The translations under genes were made by a program, and so were the position numbers. Below the pieces are notes generated by a model. It did no database searches and was not told where the DNA came from. It saw only the letters and a program-made list of their open reading frames with translations. DNA of 64,000 nucleotides from Verrucomicrobiia bacterium (GTDB taxonomy: Bacteria > Verrucomicrobiota > Verrucomicrobiia > Limisphaerales > UBA1319): NCBI GenBank assembly GCA_963664225.1, contig OY760937.1, forward strand, positions 2,976,001 through 3,040,000, given 5' to 3'. Shown here piece by piece: positions 3,701 to 16,131 of this stretch (the first letter of the stretch is position 1; each line of letters opens with the position of its first letter).

Positions 3701-4599
3701 TACTGAACTAGCAGCGACTTGGTCTTGTTGAGCAGGGCGCCGTCCAACATGCAGTAGGCGCTGTTAAGGGGGTCCAGCGTAAAACCCATCAGGTTGCCGC
3801 ACCCAAGGAACGCCATGTCACCGATGGTGGTCACACTTGCCGGGATCGCGATATTTGTCAGGTTACCGCAAAAAGCGAACGCAGTGGATGCAATATTGGT
3901 GACCCCACTGGGGATTGAAAAACCACCGGATGTCTCTCCTGGTAACTGAACAAGTGTAGTTGCGTTCTTATCGAACAATACGCCGTCCTTGCTTGAAAAG
4001 AACTTGTTTAAAGGATCCACTATGAACGCCGTTAAACCGGTGCATCCAGAAAATGCAAAAAGTCCCACGCTGGTGACGCTGCCTGGAATCGTGACTTCTT
4101 TAAGACCAAGACAATCCGAAAATGCCAGAGACCCGATCTTTAGAAGTCCATCTGGAAGTGTGAGACTCCGCAAGCCTGTGCAGCCAAAAAATGCTCTGGT
4201 TCCGATGCTTTTTACCCCTGGCATCATAATATTTGCGAGGCTGTTACAGCCGAAAAACGCATCATCGTTGATGTTTGTGACACTGTTTGGGATCGAGATG
4301 CTTGTCAGATTTGTGCATCTATTGAACGTCAACCCAATCCCGGTCACTGGGCGATTATCGATGACGGATGGGATGACCACGTCTCCGCCTGGACCATTGT
4401 ATTTTGTAATGATTATGTAATTGATGTCCGCGAAATATGTGAAATCACCATAAGTCTGCGCCCGCCCCGAGGTCATCGTTCCAATGAGTGCGACCAATAG
4501 GAGGCAAAGGCTCCAGCGCGATTTGGCGGGGGATCGGAACACATTAAGGCAGCCCAACCGTAAAACGGCCCGCAGTATAACCCGGGATATTCGGTTCAT
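724..4599 (-). CDS. BspA-type leucine-rich repeat (LRR_5) surface protein with repeated modules and an acidic Ca-binding-like C-terminal region
   Basis: Many xIPxSVTxIGxxAFxGCxxLxxI repeats in four blocks, each closed by VYYRxGxTxWxxxFGxxPTxxW; C-terminal DDADRDGMSNMAEMRAGTDP; start placed at ATG 4599 ahead of a hydrophobic signal-like stretch. Confidence 0.9.
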   Translation of the reverse strand: MNRISRVILRAVLRLGCLNVFRSPAKSRWSLCLLLVALIGTMTSGRAQTYGDFTYFADINYIIITKYNGPGGDVVIPSVIDNRPVTGIGLTFNRCTNLTSISIPNSVTNINDDAFFGCNSLANIMMPGVKSIGTRAFFGCTGLRSLTLPDGLLKIGSLAFSDCLGLKEVTIPGSVTSVGLFAFSGCTGLTAFIVDPLNKFFSSKDGVLFDKNATTLVQLPGETSGGFSIPSGVTNIASTAFAFCGNLTNIAIPASVTTIGDMAFLGCGNLMGFTLDPLNSAYCMLDGALLNKTKSLLVQYPPARVGNYTIPRTVTKIGTAAISGCSGLTAINTDTNVNSLSLSYNSIDGVLWDQYKKKLIAYPGGRIGSYAITNASYEITPYAFSDCRGLTGISIPNGLNRIGSNSFFNCTALTNVALPNDLYVIEESTFAGCTSLTDITLPASTGYIYVHAFTGCTNLTRLLFEGNLPSLSTHKTLLIGGNMVTVYYRNGTTGWGNSFGGFPTAIWYDPDVQDYTYRQNGSTMAITAYTGSGGSATIPDTIFGESVTNVDPSAFLASTNLERLIIPGSIATIGELAFSGCASLKQVYFEGNAPALPGPGGLFDTAANVIVYYRAGATGWGGSFGGQPTAVWYDTDVQDFTYQQNGAAITITGYTGTGGNVTIPDTIFGEPVTSIGDDAFGHGLTLTNITMPESITNIGVAAFKGCTNLASFTAPNKVTTIAMETFAGCSGLTNISFASGVGLIGDRAFSGCVGLANITIPDSVTNIGSFAFADCAQIASVIIPYRVTSLGEGVFSGCSGLTGLYFEASAPTLSGAVAPFLDATNVTVYYRAGTTNWSATFGERPTTLWIDPAGVDFVTLQNGSTITITGYAGPGGAVTIPNALFGRLVNTIGEGAFYGCTNLTNITIPNSITSIGKVAFQYCVNLSNIEIPDSVTKLGLAMFYKCPKLISAKLSNSLKTIELDMFYECTALTSITIPDSVTDIRDFAFYGCSGLKSVNIGNSVSSIGMRVFDQCTSLTNLTIPGSVIRLGHFAFSTCSSLTNINFPDNFPKIDDMAFSFCTGLTNVTLPRSITSIGSWSFGFCSNLVSIVIPASVTVINVEAFTRCTRLTGIYYEGNAPALVGAIEPANTATNMVVYYRAGTTGWGPTFGGRRTALWIDESAYQAWAQSSGLLDKFPEASAETDDADRDGMSNMAEMRAGTDPTTAASVLEFERAPRLADLSDDDKTAIGTDQNALYLQTVPGRSYEIQSVGAMGGAWQTQTNVSATTTQKRILVTKPVGQQFYRTILVP

Positions 4600-8478: not shown

Positions 8479-8736
8479 TGCTTTCGATCGCATTTCATTT
8501 ACGGGCTTGTTTCTGGCGATCAATTTAAGGGGTTCGCCGCGGTTTGCGACAAAAAAGGAGGCGGGGAAAAAAGTCCCGTCCTGAAACAGGTTGTCACAGA
8601 TGAGACAATAAACGGTGTCAGAAGGGTGGGAATAAGGTCCAGTGATTCGTTTAACCCGAAATCCGAAATACGAATGGTCAAGATGATGCAATGCTTTGAG
8701 GCAGCCATGATTTGCAATCGGCGAGGGTGTATTAAA

Positions 8737-10268
8737 CCCGAACTCCGAGATAGAAAAAGAGGTCGCAATGCGCAACCTTCTGAGGCAATAGGGTTTGATG
8801 CTAAACAAGCCCGCTTCAGACTCGCACAAAACGACCCCAGTCGAAATTAGCGCTCTTTTCGGCCAAGCCAAGCTCTATCTGGATGAGACTCCCAAGGCCA
8901 TAACCCCCTTCGGCGGTCTGGCTTCATTCATAACCTTTTTGGGTCAGATCGGCTATGCGCAGGCGGTGCAGCGGTGCTTGCCGTTTGCCGCGCCCACTTC
9001 ACCTAATGCCATTCCTCTAGCCCATACGCTGACCAGTTTTATCGTATCTGTGGTGGCGGGAGCACGCCGCTTTGCCCACTGTCAGTGGCTGCGTGCCGAT
9101 CATGTTCTGCACGCCATGCTGGGGATGGAACGTTTCCCGGGCGATGACACCATCCGCAACTTCTTCCTGCACTTTGGCCAGGGCCACATCGAAGCGTTCT
9201 GGCGACCGCTCTGGCGATGGCTGCTCAATCTGCTGGCCTGCCCCAAGGCAGGCTTCTCGTTGGATCTGGATTCGACCGTGTTCTGCCGGGAGGGTTCGCA
9301 GGAGGGGGCTGCCAAGGGGTACAATCCACGCCGCAAGGGGCGCAAGAGCCATCATCCGCTCCTGGCGGTGCTGGCCGAAGCGCCGTTTATCCTGCATGGA
9401 TGGTTGCGCAGCGGCAACACCGGAGCCGCGCGCGGGGTGGTGCCGTTTTTGCAGGAGGCATTGGCCCTGTTGCCCGAGGGAACGTGGATTCGGTGCGTGC
9501 GTGCCGACAGCGGGTTCTTCGATGAGGCGTTAGTGACGTTTTTGGAAATGCGCAAATTAACCTACATTGTGGTGGCGCGCATGACCTCCACGATCAAATA
9601 CCATTGCGTGGGAATCCAGAACTGGAAAGCCATCGATGAAAATCATGCCGTGGGGGAGTTTAGAGCCCAACTCTTTGGCTGGTCCACTGCCCGGCGATTC
9701 GTGGTGCTGCGGGAGCGGATCAGGGAAGACAAGGAGGCTCTGGGTCGCAAGCTCATTGATGTGCCCGGTTACACCTTTCGAGTGTGCGTCACCAACCGAA
9801 GTGAAGGCGCGCTGGAACTGTGGAGGGACTACAACGGAAGGGCCACCATCGAGCAGCGGATCGAGGAGCTGAAGAATGATCTGGCTGCCAACGGTTTTTG
9901 CCTGAAATCGTTTTTCGCCACCGAGTCGGCGTTTCTGGCGGTGCTCTTCACATTCAACCTGCTGAGTCTTTACCAGCATCAGACCACTCCAACCCAGCCA
10001 TACCGCCAGCCAGGAACATTGCGGACGACGGTTTTTCTGGCGGGAGCCCTCTTGGGAACGATGGGGCGTGATGTGGTGGTGAGGCTCTCGGCGGCCTGGG
10101 GTGGACTGGCTAAACACAAGCCGTTGATAGAAACCACGTTGAACTGGTTGAAAAGCGCGTCGCCGAAGTTGGTGCCACCGGAAGCCCGGCAAGCTTTCGG
10201 AGGGGGCGGAATATGACCGGAGGGGTTAGCGGTTCCCTAAAAAAACCGACCTAACTTCGGAGTTCGGG
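8737..10268 (+). mobile_element. IS1380 family insertion sequence (1532 bp)
   Basis: 12 bp IRs CCCGAACTCCGA (8737-8748) and TCGGAGTTCGGG (10257-10268); TSD TTAAA at 8732-8736, with the second copy split by the intron into T(10269)+TAAA(12245-12248). Confidence 0.9.
8798..10216 (+). CDS. IS1380 family DDE transposase
   Basis: ITPFGG, LDLDST, GYNP...HPLL, LRSGN, VRADSGF and YNGRATIEQRIEELK motifs of DDE_Tnp_1_4; uninterrupted frame. Confidence 0.93.
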   Translation: MLNKPASDSHKTTPVEISALFGQAKLYLDETPKAITPFGGLASFITFLGQIGYAQAVQRCLPFAAPTSPNAIPLAHTLTSFIVSVVAGARRFAHCQWLRADHVLHAMLGMERFPGDDTIRNFFLHFGQGHIEAFWRPLWRWLLNLLACPKAGFSLDLDSTVFCREGSQEGAAKGYNPRRKGRKSHHPLLAVLAEAPFILHGWLRSGNTGAARGVVPFLQEALALLPEGTWIRCVRADSGFFDEALVTFLEMRKLTYIVVARMTSTIKYHCVGIQNWKAIDENHAVGEFRAQLFGWSTARRFVVLRERIREDKEALGRKLIDVPGYTFRVCVTNRSEGALELWRDYNGRATIEQRIEELKNDLAANGFCLKSFFATESAFLAVLFTFNLLSLYQHQTTPTQPYRQPGTLRTTVFLAGALLGTMGRDVVVRLSAAWGGLAKHKPLIETTLNWLKSASPKLVPPEARQAFGGGGI

Positions 10269-10269
10269 T

Positions 10270-12244
10270 GTGCGCCAGTGAAATTGGTAGCCTCGTGGGT
10301 GAAAGTCCCGCCGGTCGAATTAGACGGTTCACGACCGAAATGCAGCGTCCGGGACGAGGCCGTGAGGCCGAACCACAAGCGGGACGCTGAAAGAACTGTC
10401 GGGTCGTAACGAAAGTAAACCTCATCAAATGAGCTCCGAAACCGAAATAACCGGTAAGCCGAGCCGCTACCCGAACGGCGAAGGCAGAAACGCGGCGTCA
10501 TCAAATCGTCAAATGGGCGCTGTTGATTCCGGCGGAGTCAGCGAGGGCGACACGACAGGAAGGGAAACCAAGGTAAGCTGGGAGATCTCTGGAGGCGGGG
10601 CGATAAAGCCTCAACCGCCGGTGCAAGGAGGAACACCCTCCGAGGCCGCACGGGCAGCCAGAGAAGTCGGAGTCTTCCATAGTAGCGAAGAAGCTGGGGC
10701 GACCAAAACCCCGGCGGAGCCAAGGGAAGGCACTTGGATCGAAGCGAATCAAAACAGCGAGGGACAGGGAGATGGCCTTGAGGGAGTGGAAACACTTTTT
10801 CAACGGATAACAACCCCGATAAAAGTTCAAAAGCTGCAGCGAGCGCTATATTGCAAAGCCAAGGCTGAGCCGAAGTATCGGTTTTACAGCCTCTACGGAG
10901 AACTGCTGCGGAAGGACGTGCTGGAAACGGCAATGGCCTCCGTGGCGCACAACAATGGCGCGGCTGGGATCGACGGGCAGACATGCGACGTCTATCTTGC
11001 CAGCGACGAAGCCTGGGACCAATGGCGGAACCAACTGCTGGAGGAGTTACGCACGAAGAAGTATCGGCCAAGCCCGGTGAAGCGTGTGTATATACCAAAA
11101 GGAGACGGGAAGCTGCGACCCCTGGGCATCCCGACAGTGAAAGACCGGGTGGTGCAGACAGCGGTGGTGATTGTATTGCTGCCGATTCTGGAAGCCGATA
11201 GTCATCCGAACAGTTACGCCTATCATCCCAAACGCAATGCCCACCAAGCAATGGAGGCGATCAAGAAGGCTACGCTGACAGGACGCGTCGAAGTTATAGA
11301 CGCGGACTTAAGCGGGTATTTTGACAGCATTCCCCACAGGCGTTTGTTGCGCATAGTGGCCAAGCGGGTCAGCGATGGAACAATTCTCAAGCTGATCGCA
11401 GGATGGCTGCGCGCGCCCGTGAATGAACCGCAAAGCGACACAGGGAAAGGCGGGACAAAGGGGGGGCAAGGTCAGAATCGACGGGGGACTCCGCAAGGCG
11501 GGGTTGTATCGCCGATTTTAGCCAATGCATACCTCAACCAGTTGGATTGGGAAGTCAACGAACGCTGCGAACTCAAACCCGTGATGGTGAGATACGCGGA
11601 TGATTTCGTGATACTCGGACAGCCGGGGCAGGGACGGGAACTGATGGAACGACTGGAACGATGGCTGAAGCAACGCGAGTTAGTGCTCAACGAGAAGAAG
11701 ACCCGCTTGGTGGACCTCCGCCAGGATGGCATCAAATTCTTGGGATTCGCGCTAACAATGCGACAGGGGAAGGGGAAATGGAAATATCCGCATGTGGAAC
11801 CCCATCCCAAGAGCCAGAAGAAGTTTCGAGACGGGATTCGGGAGAAACTCAACCGAAGCACGCTATGGCGTGATATCGGAGAGGTGATTCCCGAGCTCAA
11901 CAAGAAACTCAAAGGTTGGAAGGGTTACTTTCACTACGGGAACAGCACCAAGGTGATGGGCCAGATGAACGAATACGTCAGCAGCAAGTTACAACGATGG
12001 TTGTGGCGCAAACACGGATGTAGTCGGGCGCAATGGTCCACATACCCCAAGGAGGATCTCTATGAGCGTTATGGTTTATACCAAATGCCGGAATATGCGG
12101 CATGGAAACGATGACGTCGAAGCGATGCAACGTATGATCCCCGGAGAGCCGGATGCGGGAAAACCGCCTGTCCGGTTCGATGAGGGGCGAAATGCGACGG
12201 TCATTGGCCACGGCCATTCAATCCGTCCATTTCGCCTACTCTAC
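10270..12244 (+). mobile_element. Group II intron (1975 nt), IIB-like; IEP resembles bacterial class F (class tentative)
   Basis: 5' GTGCG at 10270; domain V GAGCCGGATGCGGGAAAACCGCCTGTCCGGTTC at 12146-12178 with the AGC triad; domain VI hairpin ending CCTACTCTAC at 12244; removing it restores the IS TSD TTAAA. Confidence 0.93.
10786..12114 (+). CDS. ltrA: Group II intron reverse transcriptase/maturase (no endonuclease domain)
   Basis: GAAGIDG, RPLGIPTVKDRVVQ, DADLSGYFDSI, GTPQGGVVSPILAN, RYADD, FLGF and X-domain LKGWKGYF; start uncertain, GTG 10786 after GAGGGA chosen. Confidence 0.93.
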   Translation: METLFQRITTPIKVQKLQRALYCKAKAEPKYRFYSLYGELLRKDVLETAMASVAHNNGAAGIDGQTCDVYLASDEAWDQWRNQLLEELRTKKYRPSPVKRVYIPKGDGKLRPLGIPTVKDRVVQTAVVIVLLPILEADSHPNSYAYHPKRNAHQAMEAIKKATLTGRVEVIDADLSGYFDSIPHRRLLRIVAKRVSDGTILKLIAGWLRAPVNEPQSDTGKGGTKGGQGQNRRGTPQGGVVSPILANAYLNQLDWEVNERCELKPVMVRYADDFVILGQPGQGRELMERLERWLKQRELVLNEKKTRLVDLRQDGIKFLGFALTMRQGKGKWKYPHVEPHPKSQKKFRDGIREKLNRSTLWRDIGEVIPELNKKLKGWKGYFHYGNSTKVMGQMNEYVSSKLQRWLWRKHGCSRAQWSTYPKEDLYERYGLYQMPEYAAWKR

Positions 12245-12491
12245 TAAATCAATACTCCACAGCCGGTTTCAAACCATGGATGGCCAAATGATTGCGTCAG
12301 ATGGGCCGTTCCTATTTCGGATTTCGGGTTTAAAGCGGCTGCGGTGAGGGAGCTGGAAGAGGGCGAAATGTCCTTTGATGCGATGTGGCGCAAGAAAGCG
12401 TTGAGGTGCTTGCGCACGGCCACCATGGGGAGCGCAGTCAATTTGCGAGGGCGCATTCGTTCTTGAATGCGTCCTTTTGCATAATGCCGTG

Positions 12492-14058: not shown

Positions 14059-15426
14059 TCAGCGGGCCAGTTGCTTTTCCAGGTAATTGACTGCCTGGCG
14101 CACGCTTTCATCCACTTCCATGCGATCTTTGACCAGCTTGCAGGCGTGCAGCACCGTCCCGTGATCGCGGCCACCGAACGCCTCGCCGATCGCACTCAGC
14201 GAATTTTCGGTCATTTGCCGGGAGAGAAACATGGCGATTTGACGGGGAAACGCGATGTTTTCGGGCCTGCGTTTGCTGACCATGTCGGTCATGCGAATAT
14301 CGAAATGCTCGGCCACCCGTTTTTGGATGATGGTGATGTTGATGGTAAAGCGCCCTTCCTCGTGAAGTAATTCCCGCAGAAGTTCTTCCGCCAGTTCGAG
14401 CGTCGGTTTCTTATTCGTCAACGTGATGTACGAGGTCAGGCGGATCAGGGCGCCCTCGAGGCGACGGATATTCGTGCGAATCCGGTCCGCGATAAAATGA
14501 ATGACTTCGCTCGGCAAATGAACGCCGATCATGGCCTCTTTTTTCAGGAGAATGGCCACGCGGGTCTCGACATCCGGCGGCTGGAGATCGGCCACCAGAC
14601 CCCATTCGAGGCGGGACATGAGCCGCTGCTCCAGGTTCTGCATCTCGGCCGGAGGACGGTCGCAGGTGAGCACGATTTGCTTGTGGCTCTCGTGCAAGGC
14701 GTTGAACGTATGGAAAAACTCCTCCTGAATGCGTTCCTTGCCCGCGAGGAATTGAATGTCATCGATCAACAGCAGGTCGGTCTGGCGGTATTTCTTGCGG
14801 AACTTGACCAACTGGCTGTTTTGAATGGCGTCGATGTATTCGTTGGTGAATTTCTCGGAGGACAAATAGGCGACGCGCGCGCCCTTTTTCTGGCTTAGCA
14901 GTTGCTGGCCAATGGCATGGAGCAGATGCGTTTTTCCCAGACCCACACCGGCATACAAGAAAAGCGGGTTATAGGATTTGCCGGGAGATTGTGCCACGGC
15001 CATGGCCGCCGCATGGGAGAAACTGTTGGTGCTGCCCACGACAAACGTGTCAAAAGTGTATTTGGGATTGAATCCCAGGTCTGCCGGGGAGCTGTAATCC
15101 AGCGTTGCACCGCCGCTTTTGGCCTTTTTGGGCTGAACCTCGGGTGCGGGCAATGAAGCCGCTGGAGCGGTCGCCGCAATGTGGAAATCAACCTTGATCT
15201 GTTGGCCGGATTCGTGCGAAAGGACGTTCTGGAGCAAATCCAGATAGTTGTCCTTGAGCCAGACCTCGCAAAAATCGTTGGCCACTTCCAGAGTGACGAC
15301 GTCGGCGACCTGGTTGACGGCTCGCAGTGGGGCAAACCACAGATTATAAAGATCAGTGTTTAGCATGGTGCGCAGGCGCTCTTGCGCCTTCCCCCAAATG
15401 CCTTCAACTGATGTTTGCATATTCAA
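14059..15426 (-). CDS. dnaA: Chromosomal replication initiator protein DnaA
   Basis: YTFDTFVVG, YNPLFLYAGVGLGKTHL (Walker A), LLIDDIQF, QEEFFHTFN and domain IV FGGRDHGTVLHA. Confidence 0.98.
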   Translation of the reverse strand: MNMQTSVEGIWGKAQERLRTMLNTDLYNLWFAPLRAVNQVADVVTLEVANDFCEVWLKDNYLDLLQNVLSHESGQQIKVDFHIAATAPAASLPAPEVQPKKAKSGGATLDYSSPADLGFNPKYTFDTFVVGSTNSFSHAAAMAVAQSPGKSYNPLFLYAGVGLGKTHLLHAIGQQLLSQKKGARVAYLSSEKFTNEYIDAIQNSQLVKFRKKYRQTDLLLIDDIQFLAGKERIQEEFFHTFNALHESHKQIVLTCDRPPAEMQNLEQRLMSRLEWGLVADLQPPDVETRVAILLKKEAMIGVHLPSEVIHFIADRIRTNIRRLEGALIRLTSYITLTNKKPTLELAEELLRELLHEEGRFTINITIIQKRVAEHFDIRMTDMVSKRRPENIAFPRQIAMFLSRQMTENSLSAIGEAFGGRDHGTVLHACKLVKDRMEVDESVRQAVNYLEKQLAR

Positions 15427-16131
15427 TTCTCCGCCCCTCGCTGGAGCAAATTATTCACGCGGCTTTGTGACGGTTTGGTTACGCCGCTTTTTGTGTGGCT
15501 CTCCACCGCCGGACGGCGTCGAGAACCTCACCACAAAAAACACAGGGCCTCAATGGAAAAAAATAACAAAAAAGCGCATAACGCAACCTTTTGATTATAA
15601 ACTGTTTGAGTAAAGCCCAGGGTTGTCTTACCGAGCTGCTTTCCATCATCCACTCCGGCAGCCATCGCAGCCCGGTTTAATGTCGTCATGTTTTAGAGCA
15701 TCCAAAGTCTTCTGCATAGGACAACCTTCAAATTCTTGTTCACCAGTTATTCACAGGAGGATTTTGCCTTTGTTTTATGCCGAAATATCCACAAATTCGG
15801 GCCTCAATTTCGTTGAAATGCCCGAATCCCTAGCCTGCCGCCCGGTGAATAACTCTTGCACCCCTGTGCCCCAAAGGCGGAGTCAATGTTCTGAAACAGA
15901 CACTCCGCGTCCCGCCATTTGTAAAAACCGCGTAAAATTCATGCAAAAAGCGCGAAAAAGCGCCCAAATAACCTGCCAAAATGTTATTTTGTTAAATCCA
16001 TATGCTGCTTATGGAGAGCAGTTTGCGTCCATGCAGGGCAGGGCATTGCCCCCAAACTCGCCCTCGCATCCCCCCATAATCCTTGAATTCTTTCCGGTCC
16101 TCACCAAATTAGCAGCCGTATCATTGACTCT
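15427..16131. promoter_or_regulatory. Putative replication origin (oriC) and dnaA promoter region
   Basis: DnaA boxes TTATTCACA (15747-15755, consensus), TTATTCACG (15451-15459), ATATCCACA (15785-15793), GGTGAATAA (15844-15852, reverse) and TTGTTCACC (15736-15744); AT-rich tracts near 15555-15610 and 15960-16005. Confidence 0.65.

Follow-up and report, generated by a model that had tools for sequence, protein, structure and literature searches.

In Sinorhizobium meliloti, all seven copies of the group II intron RmInt2 lie inside the inverted repeats (IRs) of the insertion sequence (IS) ISRm17, and the two repeats of ISRm17 form two RmInt2 sites on opposite replication strands (PMC4615759, RNA Biol 2014). 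Four base pairs with exon-binding site 2 (EBS2) suffice for RmInt2, whose retrohoming has been demonstrated on plasmids (PMC4615759), and a 2018 review restates the RmInt2/ISRm17 case (PMC5894124). The principle of an intron using IS inverted repeats is thus already published. Here we analysed a group II intron in a 64,000-nt stretch of Verrucomicrobiia bacterium contig OY760937.1 (the window), part of a closed 5.78-Mb genome, in which the intron sits between an IS1380-family IS and most of its target duplication. A preliminary description of this DNA had hoped that such targeting was undescribed, a hope that the experimentally tested RmInt2/ISRm17 pair removes (PMC4615759, PMC5894124). The finding is nevertheless real and well supported, and its mechanism is a variant of the published one. 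It differs from the RmInt2 precedent by insertion in the duplication, by a miniature inverted-repeat transposable element (MITE) as target, by another IS family and another intron class, and by evidence drawn from a whole clade. We consider it highly probable that this is an active or very recently active endonuclease-less group II intron that retrohomes to the transposon/target-duplication junction of one transposon family.

The intron (1975 nt, GUGCG...CUAC; 10270-12244, plus strand) is present in 19 copies in the genome, each 100% identical over its full length. Their placement is non-random, with all 19 behind one 13-mer; every copy directly follows CGGA[G/T]TTCGGGT and is itself followed by TAAA or TTAA. 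This sequence has 55 matches genome-wide, and the 19 occupied ones comprise 13 of 38 MITE ends, 3 of 5 IS left ends, 1 of 5 IS right ends and 2 of 7 other sites. Both types of MITE end and both IS ends are therefore used, and no element has both ends occupied. That 17 of the 19 copies stand at IS or MITE ends, together with the exon covariation in relatives presented below, bears out the earlier proposal that the intron specialises on transposon ends through pairing between exon-binding and intron-binding sites (EBS and IBS).

In the window, the intron belongs to a nested arrangement read throughout on the plus strand. A 162-bp MITE, split into a left arm (8655-8736, terminal inverted repeat CCCGAAATCCGAAATA...) and a right arm (12249-12328, ending ...TATTTCGGATTTCGGG) that were both recognised by BLAST, is flanked by matching copies of the target duplication TTTAA (8650-8654 and 12329-12333). 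The end of the right arm is itself an unoccupied target site. The central TTAAA of the MITE is cut and occupied by a 1532-bp IS (8737-10268) whose 12-nt IRs are intact and start with CC (left, 8737-8748, CCCGAACTCCGA; right, 10257-10268, TCGGAGTTCGGG). The IS encodes a 473-aa transposase (8795-10216; NCBIfam NF033539, Pfam PF13701) that scores 227.2 bits against the IS1380 family transposase model NF033539 (cut-off 180), and it shares 100% identity across its 1532 nt with four further genomic copies (five identical in total). Its terminal repeats and short duplications are in keeping with the IS1380 family; duplications of 5 bp, TTWAA, flank all four of the intron-bearing IS copies. About 20 copies of the MITE occur in the genome (86-100% identity by BLAST), and the MITE shares its terminal sequence and duplication pattern with the IS1380-family IS. 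The genome contains this nest, with the IS in the central TTAAA and equally oriented relative to the MITE, at two places (window 8655-12328 and G000:C1:827995-831677), with an intron at the right end of the IS in the window and at its left end in the second nest. Movement or duplication of the MITE::IS composite itself may account for the pair.

The position of the intron relative to the duplications orders these events. The 14 nt at 10256-10269 read TTCGGAGTTCGGGT and run into GTGCG at 10270, and the intron end ...CUAC (12244) is followed by TAAATC. The TTAAA to the left of the IS (8732-8736) is re-formed on its right, across the intron, from T (10269) and TAAA (12245-12248), the latter being the last 4 nt of the right copy and the start of the 3' exon. 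The intron thus lies 1 nt outside the IR and splits the duplication as T|TAAA, leaving transposase and IRs intact, exactly as first described. Among the 17 element-borne copies, 16 show a perfect 5-bp duplication (TTAAA or TTTAA) split T|TWAA by the intron; the exception, at 5,611,119, has ATTAA versus TTAAA and no perfect duplication. Because the duplication is re-formed across the intron, the intron came after each transposon and was not part of the transposed unit. Since the IS is intact, an insertion that is costless to it is plausible. The introns are identical while the MITE copies differ, which indicates that the spread was recent, and the unique 3' flank of each copy excludes spread by recombination.

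These observations bear on the idea that the intron has no homing of its own and is a passenger, either of the transposase, in a unit of IS or MITE plus flank, or of recombination among MITEs. The strict association with transposon ends would be expected from such a passenger, and IS1380-family elements are capable of one-ended mobilisation of adjacent DNA. However, in 16 of 17 cases the duplication brackets just the transposon and is interrupted by the intron; the 5 nt that follow the intron are unlike the left flank, identical introns sit on differing MITEs, and with unique 3' flanks MITE recombination cannot copy the intron. We regard this passenger scenario as scarcely credible, and homing by the intron itself as the better account of the 19 sites.

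We next considered how the intron could recognise its sites, using three folds of domain I (the Rfam alignment, RNAalifold on 11 sequences and a single-sequence minimum free energy (MFE) fold) and covariation between introns and 5' exons. The covariation sets comprised the window intron and 10 relatives with a usable 5' exon, drawn from genomes and metagenomes and encoding proteins 69-79% identical to that of the window intron, and scores were compared with 20000 exon permutations. Nine further loci were left out of these counts: L031, whose contig begins at the intron; L108 and L110, in which the 3' end of another intron stands in place of a 5' exon; L111, L113 and L034, whose 5' part is absent from the sequence; and the divergent introns L118, L119 and L004 (G014), whose 5' ends are ill-defined.

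The EBS1 heptamer ACCCGAA (10469-10475, plus strand) lies in the loop of a GCCG/CGGC hairpin in all three folds, as had been proposed, and is complementary to IBS1 TTCGGGT (10263-10269, plus strand), which consists of the last 6 nt of the right IR and the first T of the duplication and precedes all 19 copies. Across the 11 intron/exon sets, which include six different 7-mers, EBS1 forms 75 of 77 possible pairs with exon positions -1 to -7, a score reached by 0 of 20000 permutations. All 19 copies have a 3' exon that opens with T, which fits a fixed IBS3.

EBS2 required revision. The preliminary description correctly gave ACCCGAA and CTCCGAA as exact reverse complements of the two 7-mers in 10256-10269, and assigned the second (10434-10440) to EBS2. 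Folding, on which that assignment had been staked, pairs 10434-10438 with the CGGAG found on the 3' side near 10530; the helix is present in each of the three folds, and RNAalifold shows a compensatory change there (C-G in nine sequences, U-A in two). The 5' strand of this domain I helix, GCUCCG (10433-10438, plus strand; Rfam, RNAalifold and MFE), makes up most of the earlier EBS2 and is near-invariant among relatives (GCYYCG) despite their differing exons. Directly 3' of the helix is a one-sided 12-nt internal loop on the 5' side (10439-10450, AAACCGAAAUAA), the variable part of the region, which is unpaired in the Rfam alignment and in RNAalifold. When loop base i was set against exon position -(7+i), 45 of 66 pairs formed in the window intron and its relatives, compared with 18-31 at nine other offsets, and this score was reached by 5 of 20000 permutations. 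In the 10 relatives, the earlier register gave 24 of 70 pairs, which is the chance level, and the loop register 39 of 60. The proposed check of covariation between binding sites and 5' exons therefore came out in favour of EBS1 and of the EBS2 loop, and left the original EBS2 at chance. Considered alone, the sequence 10424-10543 folded no better than its shuffled versions (z -0.71), and we therefore prefer the alignment fold. On the strength of the folding and of the comparative data in relatives we chose the loop register, in which the better EBS2 is CCGAAAUA (10442-10449, plus strand), about 8 nt from the earlier placement, and the corresponding IBS2 spans -17 to -10 (10253-10260, plus strand).

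The choice of register matters for what the intron is built to read. With the original EBS2, CUCCGAA (10434-10440) would pair with -8 to -14 and the intron would be made for the IS1380 IR and not for the MITE. Such an arrangement has an exact 7-nt complement and an IBS2 adjoining IBS1, which is the usual geometry, and it pairs with IS ends better than the loop register does (8 pairs, one of them G-U, at -7 to -14 of the right end; 7 pairs, one G-U, at the left end). Against it stand the helical state of 10434-10438 in three folds with its U-A/C-G compensation, the near-invariance of the strand among relatives with differing exons (24 of 70 pairs), and a C-U mismatch as the first pair at 13 MITE sites, and we judge it unlikely. 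The revised EBS2, by comparison, pairs 8 of 8 with the MITE end at -10 to -17. At the IS right end it forms 5 contiguous pairs, at -14 to -10 only (the CTTCG...GG region, 10256-10260), and at the left end 7 of 8, non-contiguous and counted by eye. The emphasis that was first laid on the IS thus shifts to the MITE, the best-matched and most used target.

A MITE end could also be recognised by its shape. Class C (IIC) introns insert just past a palindromic motif, outside genes, at terminators or attC sites (PMC3753933, PMC7923331); by analogy, the MITE might form a hairpin in single-stranded DNA with the intron entering at its foot and pairing being secondary. The MITE arms are about 71-78% alike when inverted, the intron lies 1 nt from the foot of such a hairpin, and the relative L033 lies at the end of a 75-bp palindrome. 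Four copies, however, are at the ends of a 1.5-kb IS, and the two solo sites, one with unique upstream DNA and one beside an unrelated repeat, have no partner arm within 2.2 kb. These two occupied sites have only 14-16 nt in common with the MITE tip, so that a short sequence alone is enough for insertion. Unlike IIC introns, which have a short EBS1 and lack EBS2 (PMC3753933), the present intron has a full 7-nt EBS1 and a covarying EBS2, and sequence suffices for its targeting. Shape-directed targeting is therefore improbable in our assessment, and recognition by EBS pairing remains the preferred explanation.

Occupancy of the sites depends strongly on strand. Copies on the plus strand (13) are found at 0.05-0.95 Mb and 2.99-5.61 Mb and those on the minus strand (6) at 1.66-2.19 Mb, so that the two orientations form just two blocks on the circle (probability 19/27132 by our own arithmetic). 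Both GC skew and gene orientation switch in two regions, near 1.3 and 3.0 Mb, the skew changing sign near 1.3 Mb, and cumulative gene orientation has its peak near 1.3 Mb and its minimum at 2.7-3.3 Mb; dnaA is at 2.9906 Mb (window 14059-15426, minus strand). Assuming an origin at 2.9915 Mb and a terminus at 1.3 Mb, from which we infer fork direction, sites co-oriented with the fork are occupied in 18 of 29 cases versus 1 of 26 for opposed sites (Fisher p 3.4e-6). [quoted passage not shown] A scan for DnaA boxes gave 9 matches with at most one mismatch versus 7.1 expected and did not pinpoint the origin; two one-mismatch boxes, 38 nt apart, are located just upstream of dnaA (window 15747-15793).

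To see whether the landing habit extends beyond this genome, we turned to the exons of the relatives. A 5' exon of the type ...GTGGTTnnAACnGCnnTTTTCAGGT is common to L030, L032, L112, L116 and L117 and is found in looser form in L109 and L002. The reverse complement of these exons follows the pattern CCTGRAAAMNGCRGTY. Some genomes from the same order carry multiple matches to it on each strand (15+13 by strand in G012, 9+9 in G127, 6+7 in G097; 0-1 for a backwards control), and the window's genome has no match. In G012, the pattern marks MITEs of about 160-190 bp. Ten copies were fetched, one of which was lost to a contig end, and 9 of the 9 examined have a perfect 5-bp duplication (TTCAA, TTGAA, TTAAA, TTCAG, TTCAT, GTGAT or GTCAC). 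In the relatives, the 5' exon runs through this MITE tip and stops one base beyond it, and the 3' exons start with TCAAG, TGAAT, TGAAA or TCATC, which can be read as what is left of such duplications. T opens the 3' exon in 7 of 7 readable relatives (an eighth junction, in L108, is head-to-tail), and in L030, L112, L116 and L109 the 3' exon reads as T with the other four bases of a TTSAW-type duplication. In L032 the extra base beyond the tip is A, and its EBS1 carries a matching U. The relatives too, then, land one base outside the tip, and therefore the landing habit belongs to the clade and the EBS follows the tip.

Whether the whole clade, whose proteins are at least 69% identical and come from several bacterial lineages, lives as a dedicated parasite on a single MITE/IS superfamily (CCYGRAA... 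ends and TTNAA-like duplications), its EBS tracking the terminal repeats, is in our view evenly balanced. If so, the site would extend across the transposon tip into the first 2 nt of the duplication, the target preference of the transposase would supply the last IBS1 base and IBS3, and EBS1 and EBS2 would track the terminal repeat of the host's own MITE family, while insertion outside the repeat would leave the transposon able to make new sites. A link between the relatives' MITE and IS1380 was not seen at the loci examined: CCTGRAAAMNGCRGTY occurred at 0 of 10 loci with IS1380-like transposase matches, taken from 12 such loci in five CCTGRAAAMNGCRGTY-rich genomes. The MITE family itself (L239-L248 in G012 and L249 in G127:C20) has ends CCTGGAAAAAGCAGTT... 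and tandem sub-repeats such as CGCGAAA(T/C)A; no transposase partner for CCTGGAAAAAGCAGTT was found (28 terminal 16-mer matches in G012).

Taken together, these data suggest how retrohoming to transposon junctions may proceed. The partner of EBS1 (10469-10475) would be the stretch made up of the six terminal nucleotides of the inverted repeat and the T that opens the duplication, and that of EBS2 (internal loop, 10442-10449) would be repeat positions -10 to -17. IBS3 would be the invariant T with which the 3' exon starts, at the second position of the duplication. The 162-bp MITE, with 8 of 8 EBS2 pairs at its ends, is probably the cognate target, and the ends of the IS1380-family IS are second-best. 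Landing outside the repeat leaves the transposon whole. Each element offers an identical site on both strands, and the one oriented with fork movement is the one used, which fits reverse splicing into the lagging-strand template with nascent DNA as primer. For RmInt1 and RmInt2, this lagging-template route with nascent-DNA priming has been demonstrated experimentally (PMC4615759).

A number of observations weigh against this interpretation. RNA runs contain fewer than 1/10 of the sampled words, so that splicing and current mobility are inferences, for which the 19 identical copies are indirect evidence. If the origin lies upstream of dnaA, the window copy, which is ~2-5 kb from that gene, is the lone exception to the strand rule; the origin is not precisely placed, and the replichores are very unequal, at about 4.1 and 1.7 Mb, reflecting either a truly uneven chromosome or an effect of assembly or rearrangement. 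Eleven of the co-oriented sites carry no intron. The two EBS2 registers are indistinguishable within this genome: the earlier 7-mer pairs over 5-7 nt at all 19 sites, and both registers can pair because the target is a tandem TTCGGA/TTTCGGG repeat. The MFE fold also puts part of the revised EBS2 (10441-10444) into a 4-bp hairpin. As for the relatives, the terminal inverted repeats of the occupied elements score clearly above shuffles in L033 and L112 only (32 and 38 versus maxima of 23 and 25), are marginal in L002, and are not above shuffles in L109, L032, L117, L114 and L116, of which L114 and L116 have little upstream DNA. The one joint in the reads, 8732 to 12245, comes from the many MITE copies that are intact at other genomic positions, and it speaks neither for nor against splicing or an empty allele at this locus.

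The intron retains the features of a functional element: the GUGCG start, a domain V match, YADD, and reverse transcriptase (RT) and maturase domains. Rfam recognises domain I (RF02005, 10302-10547, 54.9 bits, cut-off 49) and domains V and VI (RF00029, 12144-12244, plus strand, 49.3 bits, cut-off 40), and in the RF00029 alignment domain V forms the hairpin GCGG-GAAAA-CCGC with a 5-nt loop. The intron-encoded protein (442 aa, 10786-12114, plus strand) was read from GTG 10786, a start of our choice with GAGGGA just upstream. It scores 357 bits against the group II RT/maturase model TIGR04416 (cut-off 300), contains the Pfam domains RVT_1 and GIIM alone, with no endonuclease (D/En) domain, keeps the YADD motif, and extends about 25 aa past the maturase match. 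Excluding the open reading frame, the ribozyme measures 646 nt. The intron is IIB-like with IIE/IIF-type features. As in IIE and IIF introns, the ribozyme is small (range 450-700 nt), the domain V loop has 5 nt, the layout is IIB-like, the protein lacks an endonuclease domain, and EBS2 covaries and is thought to serve retrohoming (PMC3753933). Targeting of transposon ends is not mentioned for IIE/IIF in the available part of PMC3753933, and the likeness to IIE/IIF is one of traits, which makes either group a candidate class. Plasmid-borne relatives are all below 60% identity (best about 40-42%), and none carries a class label.

Set beside RmInt2, the present intron shares an endonuclease-less protein, identical copies, targeting of IS repeats at both ends with one site per strand, the lagging-strand-template bias and tolerance of imperfect EBS2 pairing of about 4 nt (PMC4615759). 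Head-to-tail copies are a further likeness, found for the present intron only in metagenome contigs L108 and L110. RmInt2, by contrast, is a class D intron that sits within the repeat, whereas the present one lies 1 nt outside it, in the target duplication; its domain V loop has 5 nt, and its 442-aa protein gave no regular-expression match to the class D C-terminal motif LX3AX3PXLF[V/A]HW as given in the available part of PMC4615759. Here the intron mainly targets a MITE, the transposon is of the IS1380 family, and copies number 19 versus 7; RmInt2 has been tested at the bench, and the present intron is known from sequence alone. RmInt1 in ISRm2011-2 is similar in its endonuclease-less protein, its residence in an IS and its replication-strand bias (PMC4615759, PMC5894124, PMC8914252), but blocks the IS by inserting in the transposase gene region and has one site per IS. 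Searching the group II intron literature for MITE or IS1380, we found no homing to MITE ends among the matches listed, which does not show its absence from print, and the available part of PMC4853749 places no group II intron at MITE ends.

The locus and its sister copies amount to a natural experiment on site choice without an endonuclease, in which 55 near-identical sites, arranged as opposite-strand pairs in one closed genome, are filled almost only on the fork-matching strand. One mobile element lives here on the junction of another and leaves it unbroken, and MITEs, besides full ISs, can be homing sites. Practical value is modest, as a compact candidate with a readable target of 15-17 nt. 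For annotation, a caution follows, as such intron copies mark MITE and IS ends.

Several further observations were made on the intron and its targets. In the contig depths of runs X1 and X2, the intron unitig stands at ~15-25x its single-copy flanks in both labelled organisms, and the IS at ~5x its flanks in one and 1-2x in the other, these depths not being equivalent to copy numbers. In the metagenome contigs L108 (105-125 and 2073-2093) and L110 (about 1464-1480), the intron end …CCTACTCTAC abuts a GTGCG… intron start, which could represent either head-to-tail copies or an assembly loop through a repeat. Small palindromic elements of CACGGATGA-type repeats (CCACGGATGACACGGATGACACGGATG ... 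inverted) are present in L033 (1906-1980) and L117 (about 130-210), and one such element bears an intron relative exactly at its end. A MITE end or CCGGAGTTCGGGT is followed by (T)GAGGCGATGC... at three places, G000:C1:4459 (+), 1584469 (-) and 831676 (+). The stretch after 831676 resembles a short coding sequence by eye, and the sequences at 4459 (+) and 1584469 (-) and after the MITE at 831676 were rejected as introns by Rfam.

Lastly, the genome contains a second family of group II introns, with four copies (L193-L196) at about 1.677, 2.331, 5.162 and 5.605 Mb of G000:C1. These introns are RF02005-type (70.4 bits), and their common sequence starts near GGAAAGCGCC, not GUGYG. Their 5' exons (…TCTCTG, …TCTTTG, …CTTTTG and …CATCTG) are neither MITE nor IS ends, and they carry an EBS1-like loop, CAGAGAA.

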